Origin: a virus
Taxonomy: Duplodnaviria; Heunggongvirae; Uroviricota; Caudoviricetes
Direction: 5' to 3' (one strand)
DNA length: 64,000 nucleotides
Virus record (IMG/VR): IMGVR_UViG_2684623127_000006
The stretch's first letter is position 1. Every line of letters starts with the position of its first letter. A model generated the notes under the pieces. That model had not been told where the DNA came from. It was given only the letters and a program-made list of their open reading frames with translations, and searched no databases. This document shows, in pieces, positions 11,351 through 13,130 of the stretch. Both the position numbers and the translations under genes were made by a program.

Positions 11351-11642
11351 CCAACCTCATCTATTTGATTAACTGTATGCCATCGTAGTGATGGCGTAAC
11401 AGCTGCCTGCTTAAAATGTTTTGATAAAAAAACATTGACCTTAAATGTTCGTTTTTCTAAACTTCATTCATTCCCTCACCCCGCCCCACAGAATGCAGGG
11501 CAATACTTCGAGTTACCAGGCAGTGGTCAGGGGTTAAGTAGCCAGCCCGAGGCGTAAGAACATGACGGCAGGGTTCAACTTTAATAACTATGCAGCAGGT
11601 TTTTGTTCCGCTACCCCGGCGTTAAGGGGAAATGAGGTCAAC

Positions 11643-11795
11643 ATGGATACGCTCAATCTTGGCAACAACGAATCTCTGGTATGTGGCGTGTTCCCCAACC
11701 AGGACGGTACGTTCACCGCGATGACGTATACCAAAAGCAAAACGTTTAAAACTGAAGCTGGCGCGCGTCGCTGGTTAGCCAGAAACACTGACTGA
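11643..11795 (+). CDS. small hypothetical protein (first gene of cI-adjacent cargo cassette)
   Basis: 50-aa ORF MDTLNLGNNESLV…; stop overlaps next gene start (ATGA). Confidence 0.35.
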   Translation: MDTLNLGNNESLVCGVFPNQDGTFTAMTYTKSKTFKTEAGARRWLARNTD

Positions 11796-12445
11796 TGAGG
11801 TTGACGATGGAATTTAAAGATTTACCTCCTTCAATCCAGGAGATTGCAGCACACACACTTCGTCATCGTCTGAACGAACTTGAATTGGAATCGGTAACGA
11901 AAAAAGACACTGATAATATGGCTCGTAATGTGCGCGATGCGTTTACCGGATTGTATTTCTGTGCGTCTATAAATAAACACGACTCAGAGAGTGTGGCAAA
12001 TAAAATTGCAGAAACGACAGCGCAAAACATCAATACGAAACCAACGGAAGAAGAAATTGATCAGTTTGCTCATGATGCTGGTTTAAAAAACAAGAAAGAA
12101 AAATCGCCATATGCGGGGAACATGTTTGTTTATGACAATCTCATCAGAATTCGTGGCGAAATTCCGGCGGAATACCTGGCAAGAGTCCATCAGGCATTGC
12201 TTAAAAATTTGGAAACAGAATTATTTGATGGCAACACTAACGGTTTCTTCATGGTATCAGGCCTTGAGAAAGACTGGGATGCAGAAAAACGCTGGAATGT
12301 TGCTACATGGTTATTCAGTAACAGAGCCGCTGCACTGGAAGCTTCGGCATGTATTTGCGGCCTGTTCTTAACAGACCACAAATATAATCTGGATGTGTAC
12401 AGTTATATTTACGCTGAACACGGTCCACTCTGGATTGACTGGTAA
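11795..12445 (+). CDS. hypothetical protein, no recognisable domain (candidate exclusion/defence cargo)
   Basis: 216-aa ORF (alternative start 11807 with GAGG RBS); in rexAB-equivalent position downstream of cI; absent from prophage 2. Confidence 0.5.
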   Translation: MRLTMEFKDLPPSIQEIAAHTLRHRLNELELESVTKKDTDNMARNVRDAFTGLYFCASINKHDSESVANKIAETTAQNINTKPTEEEIDQFAHDAGLKNKKEKSPYAGNMFVYDNLIRIRGEIPAEYLARVHQALLKNLETELFDGNTNGFFMVSGLEKDWDAEKRWNVATWLFSNRAAALEASACICGLFLTDHKYNLDVYSYIYAEHGPLWIDW

Positions 12446-12655
12446 TTATAAGGAAACACCAGCAGGGCCGCGGCGACCAACAGAACGATTAAAATCAATA
12501 ATGCCATTATAAAGGACATTATTTAATTTATCGTCGAATGCTGATTCTGTGAGCCTCAACTCTGAATGAGTTTTTAATAACCCTGATTGCCTGAGTTGAT
12601 TTACCAGGCATTCAATCTGTTTTTCAATAAGCGGATTTCTTTTTTTGTTTGGCAT
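12446..12655 (-). CDS. small hypothetical protein convergent on the 216-aa gene
   Basis: 69-aa ORF from MPNKKRN with GGAGG RBS 5 nt upstream. Confidence 0.4.
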   Translation of the reverse strand: MPNKKRNPLIEKQIECLVNQLRQSGLLKTHSELRLTESAFDDKLNNVLYNGIIDFNRSVGRRGPAGVSL

Positions 12656-12699
12656 TTTATCCTCCATTGAGGTTCTGGGTTAAAAATGGAGACCAACAC

Positions 12700-13130
12700 G
12701 CTGTCACGTGTGGTCGTGCGCCGGACACGGATAAGAATCCGGTACTGACAGTTTACTGAAAGGATATTTCCCTGAAAAGTCAGTGCATAACGCGAAAGCG
12801 TACGGCGAAGCTCTTTCCCTTAGAAGGCTTGTCGTTAGATTTCTTCGAACGTGCGCTTCCGGTTGTGGCACTCCGCGAAATGGCGCGGCGGTAAGTATGG
12901 CGGGGTTATTCCTTCCCCATTGAGGACACCGGGTTGTCAGGTTGACCATACGCTTAAGTGACAACCCCGCTGCAACGCCCTCTGTTATCAATTTTCTGGT
13001 GACGTTTGGCGGTATCAGTTTTACTCCGTGGCTGCTCTGCCGCCCTTTTTAAAGTGAATTTTGTGATGCGGTGAATGCGGCTAAGCGCACGCGGAACAGT
13101 TAAAACCAAAAACAGTGTTATGGGTGGATT
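12700..13130. other. conserved ~430-bp non-coding element shared by both prophages (possible structured RNA / pL-nut-like region)
   Basis: Near-identical to 60185-60615; no plus-strand ORF >= 60 aa; minus-strand frames lack credible coding features. Confidence 0.5.

Follow-up and report, generated by a model that had tools for sequence, protein, structure and literature searches.

Position, conservation and possible roles of a convergent gene pair in a dicBF-type operon of an Escherichia coli O157:H7 prophage

Which genes lie downstream of the CI-like repressor gene in a lambdoid prophage of Escherichia coli O157:H7, and does their closeness to cI make them a defence cassette? The question is raised by positions 11478-13130 of a stretch of viral DNA of 64,000 nucleotides (nt) (Caudoviricetes; IMG/VR record IMGVR_UViG_2684623127_000006), hereafter the window, which matches E. 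coli O157:H7 chromosomes at 100%. The genes in question belong to prophage 1, the neighbor of CP-933P/Sp12, which is prophage 2 of the window. A previous reading of these letters without database searches (the sequence-only reading) had described a variable slot holding a cassette of three genes in the position that lambda uses for rexAB, and had proposed from this position that they form a phage-defence or exclusion module. Our results suggest another description. The stretch is the variable section, next to the promoter, of a dicBF operon of the Qin type, that is, an early-left operon transcribed from a left promoter of the PL type, in a defective lambdoid prophage. The cassette is, on balance, better described as an accessory module of this early operon, and a defence cassette cotranscribed with the repressor is, with similar confidence, rejected as a description. 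What is known at this locus is therefore the dicBF operon, and what remains is a conserved, uncharacterised pair of convergent genes inside it, encoding proteins of 212 and 69 amino acids (aa).

Position of the cassette in the operon

The gene order in prophage 1 is cI, the left operator and promoter (OL/PL), a conserved leader, ydfA, the 212-aa gene facing the 69-aa gene, the untranslated region of dicF, DicF, dicB, a ydfD-like gene and a truncated recE (Table 1). DicF is thus located inside the operon, ydfA (DUF1391) is the first gene, dicB and the ydfD-like gene lie downstream and, at the sequence level, a PL-like promoter with operators follows a repressor gene of the CI/DicA type, from which a cro/dicC gene diverges. 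The nucleotide identity to the Qin prophage of K-12 reaches 88% in ydfA and 93% from the dicF untranslated region through dicF into the first part of dicB. Therefore, the Rfam, Pfam and NCBIfam matches, together with the alignment of the flanks to K-12 Qin, identify the locus as a dicBF operon. A permissive Rfam search of 11351-13250 retrieved DicF and a sub-threshold partial STnc100 match only, and a second copy of DicF is present in the window at 60472-60523.

The proposed rexAB-like position next to cI could not be upheld, as a promoter and operators (11418-11463) separate cI from the cassette. The operator repeat has 16 bp of the form GTTT-N8-AAAC; its copies are found at the right operator (OR) and again at OL, where they bracket and overlap the plus-strand promoter, and the promoter scan gave hexamers of one type for the PL-like and PR-like promoters. 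Only 84 bp, free of any open reading frame (ORF), lie between the stop codon of cI (11350) and the -35 element of PL (11435), and the left conserved block follows the -10 element at a distance of 14 nt. The equivalent promoter of prophage 2, PL933P (TTGACT-16-TAAACT, 59273-59300), stands 13 nt ahead of the block shared by both prophages, in a position homologous to that of PL in prophage 1. Repression of PL933P by PaaR2 or YdaS (~100-fold) was shown experimentally, the authors stating that no function could be assigned to the ORFs downstream of it (PMC8630535), and the PL-like dicBp of K-12 is repressed by DicA (PMC10448788). Since these counterpart promoters are repressed by DicA and PaaR2, the sense genes of the cassette are expected to be silent in the lysogen, unlike rexAB. 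By analogy, we infer that the repressor keeps ydfA and the 212-aa gene off and that both are expressed with DicF and DicB once repression fails.

The ORFs described in the sequence-only reading are all present, namely those of 50 aa (11643-11795) and 216 aa (11795-12445) and a convergent one of 69 aa preceded by GGAGG, although the first two overlap by one base in TGATG rather than in ATGA. They had been thought to hold no recognizable domain, which stands for the 212-aa and 69-aa proteins, both uncharacterised; the 50-aa ORF, however, is YdfA/DUF1391 (Pfam E = 1.2e-29). As ydfA is a conserved gene of the operon, the slot is indeed variable but its cargo amounts to two real genes and not three. 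On O157:H7 chromosomes, the Prokaryotic Genome Annotation Pipeline (PGAP) names the 50-aa product "DUF1391 family protein" and calls both the 212-aa and the 69-aa product "hypothetical protein".

Both blocks reported to flank the cassette in the two prophages were recovered by self-BLAST. The left one (11477-11632 = 59313-59468) shows 96.8% identity and the right one (12715-13324 = 60190-60802) 93%, the latter being longer than was first described, up to 13324. Moreover, the right block is not anonymous sequence, since it holds DicF (12994-13045) and runs into dicB. Between the blocks prophage 2 carries different genes, as the sequence-only reading had pointed out.

The left block also occurs in the phages vB_EcoS-689R5 and vB_EcoS-640R1. 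Conservation of the initial ~155 nt of the PL transcript extends across prophages of different immunity regions, even where ydfA is missing, as in prophage 2. When the PL leader (11471-11650) was tested for unusual RNA structure and a nut- or put-like site, the fold gave z = +0.8 and no support. Read in frame from this block, the YdfA ORF has 77 aa, the length called by phrog_751 and by some annotations.

The two genes and the structured leader

The 216-aa ORF overstates the length of its product. No Shine-Dalgarno sequence precedes the ATG at 11795, and GAGG lies six bases before the ATG at 11807. Because of this motif, of the PGAP call and of the MEF start found in all 21 aligned homologues (taken from 153 found), the start is placed at 11807 and the protein has 212 aa. 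The members of its family, 153 clusters, come without exception from Escherichia or Salmonella, and a profile search of 1.84 billion representative proteins retrieved a single full-length cluster. The N-terminal 55-90 residues reappear in many short proteins and in early-left genes of Shiga toxin (Stx) phages; a 42-aa protein beginning MEFKDLP (P0192) matches the N-terminal 36 residues only. Distant relatives of the C-domain are exclusively Salmonella proteins of 220-315 aa, part of them with an XRE-type helix-turn-helix (HTH), and the scan of GTDB species-representative genomes gave no relative of this domain. The idea that the N-terminus corresponds to YdfB was discarded, as K-12 YdfB is unrelated to the 212-aa protein.

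The ratio of nonsynonymous to synonymous substitution rates (dN/dS) of the 212-aa gene is 0.16-0.26 in the C-domain and 0.29-0.43 in the N-domain, showing purifying selection. The full-length AlphaFold model is poor, with a predicted local distance difference test score (pLDDT) of 61, whereas the C-domain alone, modelled from an alignment including the Salmonella relatives, reaches a pLDDT of 78.7 and a predicted template modelling (TM) score (pTM) of 0.73, with the predicted topology beta-beta-alpha-beta-beta-alpha-beta. A Foldseek search of this model against the PDB gave no match below E = 0.017, and the fold search in BFVD gave weak Prp-like matches (TM 0.43-0.46). A cysteine protease of the Prp/YsxB type was excluded on account of these low scores and because no Cys or His is invariant across the C-domains of E. 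coli and Salmonella. The C-domain is therefore modelled as a generic two-layer alpha/beta sandwich, without a close or specific structural relative or a readable activity; if the model is correct, the fold is of a kind that often serves binding or oligomerisation. Profile searches matched no known function either: among all ORFs compared with Pfam, NCBIfam, PHROGs and PADLOC, the 212-aa and 69-aa genes matched only PHROG families of "unknown function". Sequence searches of the PDB gave nothing, and neither did a literature search by protein accessions and PHROG identifiers.

The convergent ORF (12446-12667) has 73 codons, or 69 counted from the ATG at 12655, with GGAGG eight bases upstream. 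Its family contains 36 clusters from Escherichia, E. albertii and Salmonella. The product is hydrophilic and basic, with a grand average of hydropathy (GRAVY) of -0.53 and an isoelectric point (pI) of 9.7, and is thus opposite in charge to the 212-aa protein (pI 5.2). Between the window and Salmonella, dN/dS is 0.24 in the annotated frame; the two remaining frames of this strand exceed 1, and the three of the opposite strand give 0.44, 1.25 and 1.87. A hydrophobic 36-aa ORF (12409-12519) was considered as a type I toxin and rejected because its frame has dN/dS >1. These results show that the 212-aa and 69-aa ORFs are real genes encoding proteins under purifying selection.

The 69-aa gene is preceded by a structured leader whose elements appear in fixed order at every sampled locus: hairpin 1 (GCCGGAU...GUCCGGC), hairpin 2 and a pairing of CUCCAU with AUGGAG, the latter overlapping the Shine-Dalgarno sequence of the gene. 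In hairpin 2 the stem is kept while its sequence is wholly different between lineages. The spacing of CUCCAU and AUGGAG is 18-23 nt, and their pairing is unchanged in nine of the ten aligned variants, with a single mismatch in the other one. The fold is stable on the minus strand (z = -3.1, none of 200 shuffles being as stable) versus z = -1.75 on the plus strand. From its predicted pairing, the leader can occlude the ribosome-binding site of the 69-aa gene. Just upstream of the leader lies a -10-like hexamer (TAAACT, 12746-12751), and Salmonella has TGgTATAAC at the same distance; another minus-strand promoter-like match (12683-12654) was not accepted as the promoter because it overlaps the start codon.

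The "head" of this leader is also found apart from the 69-aa gene. In Salmonella it precedes unrelated small ORFs, namely a 64-aa family and a 155-aa gene, and both K-12 and prophage 2 (60130-60217, minus strand) have a version that lacks the Shine-Dalgarno part. More generally (including loci L004-L024), it is located upstream of different small ORFs facing prophage early operons in E. coli and Salmonella, and it corresponds to no Rfam family. The head may also act as a recombination joint between modules.

Linkage of the pair and its possible roles

Among 5426 complete E. coli genomes, the DNA of the C-domain was found in 600 (751 places) and the 69-aa gene in 597 (744 places), so that the pair is present in ~11%, or about one in nine, mostly in Shiga-toxin-producing lineages. 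In all 11 sampled contexts, defined as homologues down to 70% identity, the two genes abut stop to stop on opposite strands, and the small ORF is intact in 10 of them. Four immunity types stand beside these pairs: CI-S24, DicA-like, PaaR2-PaaA2-ParE2 and, in Salmonella, a Mu-repressor type. Similarly, the convergent small gene is present at 74 of 80 IMG/VR loci, with zero spacing at 71 of these; the sequence runs out at two loci. At L004-L006 in Salmonella, the C-domain has an ORF to itself, and this ORF abuts the same small gene. The early operons of Salmonella P2-like elements harbor, at the same place and in the same orientation, a distant version of the pair; here a C-domain protein of 30-35% identity is encoded after Cox and is faced by a gene of 64-69 aa, whose product is 41-52% identical to the 69-aa protein of the window and has the C-terminal motif GRRGPAGVxL in common with it. 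The DNA of this distant pair has diverged past saturation (dS, the synonymous component of dN/dS, is not computable) and the arrangement is the same; therefore, both partners diverged together while the arrangement was kept. Neither partner of either lineage was found in 50,697 deposited phage genomes, 57 of which contain the flanking dicBF blocks. The pair has a GC content of 0.37-0.41, versus 0.50-0.54 in the flanks. Together, these observations show that the pair is almost always inherited together and that the unit has moved between prophages of different immunity regions.

Several loci depart from this layout or extend it. A minority variant of the 212-aa type (P0046, P0104, P0109 and the ORF of L099) ends in WIDWFKG. 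In L099 the 69-aa gene was lost and the head directly abuts the large gene, followed by a different minus-strand gene of 211 aa; L100 and L104, also from IMG/VR, have no detectable small gene either. In other E. coli prophages (loci L018-L020, ~4214-4639), the pair is followed by ydfC (73 aa), which is overlapped convergently by a DUF1883 gene (87 aa). In the variable slot of prophage 2, a sense ORF of 118 aa (59483-59839, plus strand) wholly encloses an antisense ORF of 68 aa (59618-59824, minus strand) with two CxxC pairs and weak zinc-ribbon matches, and a ydfC homologue (59911-60129) comes after these overlapping ORFs. Facing sense/antisense gene pairs may be a recurring feature of this variable region.

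The mechanism that we consider most likely, although it must be regarded as tentative, is that the two products act on each other via the C-domain, with interference between overlapping transcripts in addition, in a module dependent on the state of the prophage. In this scheme, ydfA and the 212-aa gene would be transcribed from PL, silent under CI and on with DicF and DicB at derepression. The 69-aa gene would be an independent antisense unit with its own promoter, its translation limited by the structured leader, and no part but this one could be produced in a stable lysogen. The 212-aa protein would use its conserved alpha/beta C-domain to bind the small basic protein or to counteract it, and the overlapping convergent transcription implied by the layout would add interference at the RNA level, so that the module would behave differently in the repressed and the derepressed state.

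More speculatively, and as a proposal that we would not yet favor, a 212-aa C-domain protein and a facing basic protein of 64-69 aa could form an undescribed two-component module, located among the first genes of repressor-controlled early operons, that reads out or enforces the repressed versus the derepressed state. Such a module would span lambdoid dicBF operons and Salmonella P2-like and Mu-repressor-type elements, one partner being made only on derepression and the other from an antisense unit with a translation-gating leader. If this were true, it could be an exclusion-and-escape pair, an addiction pair or a brake on the induction of the toxic dicF/dicB, and the conserved leader head would be a cassette used repeatedly in prophage early operons to express small antisense genes. 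Cell division, sugar uptake and phage exclusion are under the control of DicF and DicB, as is virulence in enterohaemorrhagic E. coli (EHEC), and the promoter-proximal genes of dicBF operons are still described as of unknown function. The pair between the promoter and dicF is thus a defined candidate for a further layer of control or of host interaction in these prophages.

Four points weigh against our main reading. Hairpins 1 and 3 of the leader have invariant pairs, which gives no covariation support for the structure. The 69-aa gene has as its putative promoter just a weak -10-like element at a conserved position, with 8 of 12 consensus matches in E. coli and not called by the promoter scan. 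Four of the 78 IMG/VR loci with room downstream keep the C-domain without a detectable 69-aa gene, the large ORF being intact in L099; the pair is therefore not strictly obligate. Finally, genes within PL operons can be expressed in the lysogen from internal promoters, as is sieB in lambda and P22.

Two other roles should be weighed, and both appear unlikely. The first is the one initially proposed, a phage-defence or superinfection-exclusion cassette expressed in the lysogen from a slot next to cI, as an analogue of rexAB. The slot does vary between prophages, the 212-aa and 69-aa genes are uncharacterised, and the antisense 69-aa gene could be expressed in the lysogen. Exclusion genes such as sieB sit within PL operons, which can be counted for this idea, and the presence of the pair in 11% of E. 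coli genomes and in none of the 50,697 phage records could reflect selection in the host. Furthermore, DicB, encoded by the same operon, is a published exclusion factor, acting against ManYZ-dependent phages (PMC6832061). However, PL and OL stand between cI and the cassette, and the sense genes belong to a repressor-controlled operon of the dicBF type (PMC10448788, PMC8630535), so that the argument from position fails and, with it, the main argument for a defence interpretation. Pfam and NCBIfam gave no defence matches, and neither did PADLOC, the YdfA, 212-aa and 69-aa proteins having no hit in PADLOC-DB 2.0 at E <= 0.1. The true cI-adjacent slot is filled by PaaA2-ParE2 in prophage 2 and empty in prophage 1, showing that adjacency to cI on the map differs from a slot expressed in the lysogen. 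A lysogen-expressed defence role for the sense genes is therefore not supported.

The second role, which we regard as improbable too, is that of a toxin-antidote pair (for addiction or abortive infection), with a 69-aa toxin silenced by its leader and the 212-aa protein or the overlapping transcript as antidote. The genes are convergent, with abutting or overlapping 3' ends, as in some type I toxin-antitoxin systems; the leader can hide the Shine-Dalgarno sequence and the two proteins are of opposite charge. Loci with the C-domain and without the small gene occur (seven extra places in E. coli, four IMG/VR loci) and there is no reverse excess, although these counts are low and come in good part from related genomes. 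The window also contains hok/sok and PaaA2-ParE2, which are toxin-antitoxin loci. Nevertheless, the small protein is hydrophilic, unlike the membrane toxins of type I, no toxin or antitoxin family was matched in Pfam, NCBIfam or PADLOC, and a lysogen would keep the proposed antidote repressed, the reverse of what a stable addiction module needs.

A module acting at the RNA level alone, in which antisense transcription damps read-through from PL into the toxic dicF-dicB and the proteins are incidental, has a low probability. The antisense unit is placed between PL and dicF/dicB, the transcripts must overlap since no terminator lies between the convergent genes, and the same leader head stands before unrelated small ORFs elsewhere. 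However, purifying selection is clear in both reading frames, the small protein of the distant pair is conserved despite saturated DNA, and the two genes move together also at places that have no dicF/dicB beside them, for instance downstream of Cox in P2-like elements of Salmonella. Lastly, that the ORFs arose by chance or are decayed and functionless hardly deserves consideration: although prophage 1 is defective (truncated recE, integrase fragment, insertion sequence (IS) elements) and the annotation reads just "hypothetical protein", the selection analysis already contradicts this, dN/dS being well below 1 in the annotated frames only, and the ORFs are intact in hundreds of genomes across Escherichia and Salmonella, with the distant pair conserved as well.

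Around the pair, some further features were observed. The ORF of the CI-like repressor is intact (212 aa), yet the RefSeq/PGAP annotation of identical sequence in NZ_CP033605.1 covers just the C-terminal 112 aa, named "LexA family protein"; the same short call is seen in other assemblies (loci L015, L017). Between DicF and dicB, the STnc100-like partial match (13057-13197, plus strand) reaches 34.5 bits versus a gathering score of 47. Each prophage also has, on the minus strand, one sok antitoxin RNA of a hok/sok locus (5598-5772 and 52139-52313) and one STnc100 small RNA (110-282 and 48028-48200). The left arm of prophage 1 (13686-16835) is decayed: recE is cut after ~410 codons, and beyond it lie an integrase fragment, a DinI-like gene and elements of the IS256 and IS66 families. 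In prophage 2, the known paaR2-paaA2-parE2 locus lies at 58262-59188 (Pfam: PaaA2, E = 1.7e-19; ParE toxin, E = 4.8e-16).

Table 1. Features of the immunity and early-left regions of prophage 1, with their positions in the window
Feature	Positions	Strand	Evidence or remarks
Cro-like regulator gene	10378..10620	-	Pfam P22_Cro E = 1.7e-15; PGAP: Cro/CI family regulator
OR region: PR-like promoter TTGACT-18-TAAACT (10678-10649, minus strand) and 16-bp operator repeats 10650-10665, 10696-10711	10649..10711		Consensus promoter scan, repeat search
CI-like repressor, 212 aa, HTH and S24 autoprotease	10712..11350	+	Pfam Peptidase_S24 E = 8e-13, HTH_3; phrog_4 transcriptional repressor E = 5e-40
OL/PL region: predicted promoter TTGACC-17-TAAACT (11435-11463) and operator copies 11418-11433, 11447-11462	11418..11463	+	Promoter scan, repeat search
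Conserved 5' leader of the PL transcript (left block)	11477..11632	+	96.8% identity to 59313-59468; start 14 nt after -10
ydfA homologue (YdfA/DUF1391), 50 aa, conserved first gene of the operon	11643..11795	+	Pfam PF07151 E = 1.2e-29; 88% nucleotide identity to K-12 ydfA; PGAP: DUF1391 family protein
212-aa protein (phrog_2151, alias "Ybl81")	11807..12445	+	Variable helical N-domain (~residues 1-90) and conserved alpha/beta C-domain (~95-212), as predicted
69-aa basic protein (phrog_4274)	12446..12655	-	Convergent with the 212-aa gene, stop-to-stop abutment
Structured leader of the 69-aa gene	12656..12742	-	Predicted hairpin 1 (CCGGA...TCCGG), hairpin 2, then CUCCAU...AUGGAG over the Shine-Dalgarno sequence
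Conserved untranslated region upstream of dicF (start of right block)	12715..12993	+	93% identity to prophage 2 and K-12 Qin
DicF small RNA	12994-13045	+	Rfam RF00039, 75 bits vs gathering score 48, E = 1e-14
dicB cell-division inhibitor	13220..13408	+	Pfam DicB E = 6e-37; NCBIfam E = 1.8e-33
ydfD-like gene (DUF1482)	13405..13593	+	Pfam PF07358 E = 2.9e-15
Truncated recE (N-terminal half of exonuclease VIII)	13686..14930	+	NCBIfam PRK09709 positions 1-409 of 877; PGAP: pseudogene

Comparison with known systems

The closest known system is the dicBF operon of K-12 Qin, with which the locus shares the gene order and the flanks, a PL-like promoter downstream of the repressor gene, and the ydfD-like gene and recE/ydfE that follow (PMC10448788, PMC5069750). 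It differs in that ydfB and ydfC are replaced here by the 212-aa gene and the antisense 69-aa gene, in its repressor, which is a full CI with an S24 cleavage domain and not DicA, and in its longer leader, common to CP-933P rather than Qin.

The cassette lies on the same map side of cI as rexA-rexB of lambda, and on the same strand as cI. In contrast, rexAB is located between cI and OL/PL and is cotranscribed with cI in lysogens, whereas the cassette is downstream of PL. The 212-aa and 69-aa proteins have no similarity to RexA or RexB and no Pfam, NCBIfam or PADLOC match.

The paaR2-paaA2-parE2 locus of CP-933P is likewise an accessory module, in the immunity region of the sister prophage, and the two prophages share the PL leader block. 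Nevertheless, it is a co-directional toxin-antitoxin system of the ParE type, placed between the repressor gene and PL933P, in the true rexAB-like slot (PMC8630535), whereas the pair described here is downstream of PL, convergent and without known domains. Its convergent genes, and the lack of toxin or antitoxin families in Pfam and NCBIfam searches, also set it apart from type II toxin-antitoxin systems in general.

Type I toxin-antitoxin loci with a convergent 3' overlap or with leaders that sequester the Shine-Dalgarno sequence include hok/sok and txpA/RatA. The pair resembles them as a convergent, overlapping prophage unit whose structured 5' leader may hide the ribosome-binding site. However, the 69-aa protein, hydrophilic and basic (GRAVY -0.53, pI 9.7), is not a small hydrophobic membrane toxin, and its partner is a protein-coding gene under purifying selection instead of a small RNA.

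Finally, the pair can be compared with morons, which are independently expressed accessory genes inserted in prophage operons. Like them, it has a GC content below that of its flanks, an antisense gene with its own ribosome-binding site and leader, and an insertion point between conserved blocks, in several unrelated backbones. Unlike them, the promoter and terminator of the unit are putative, and two genes, one on each strand, move together.

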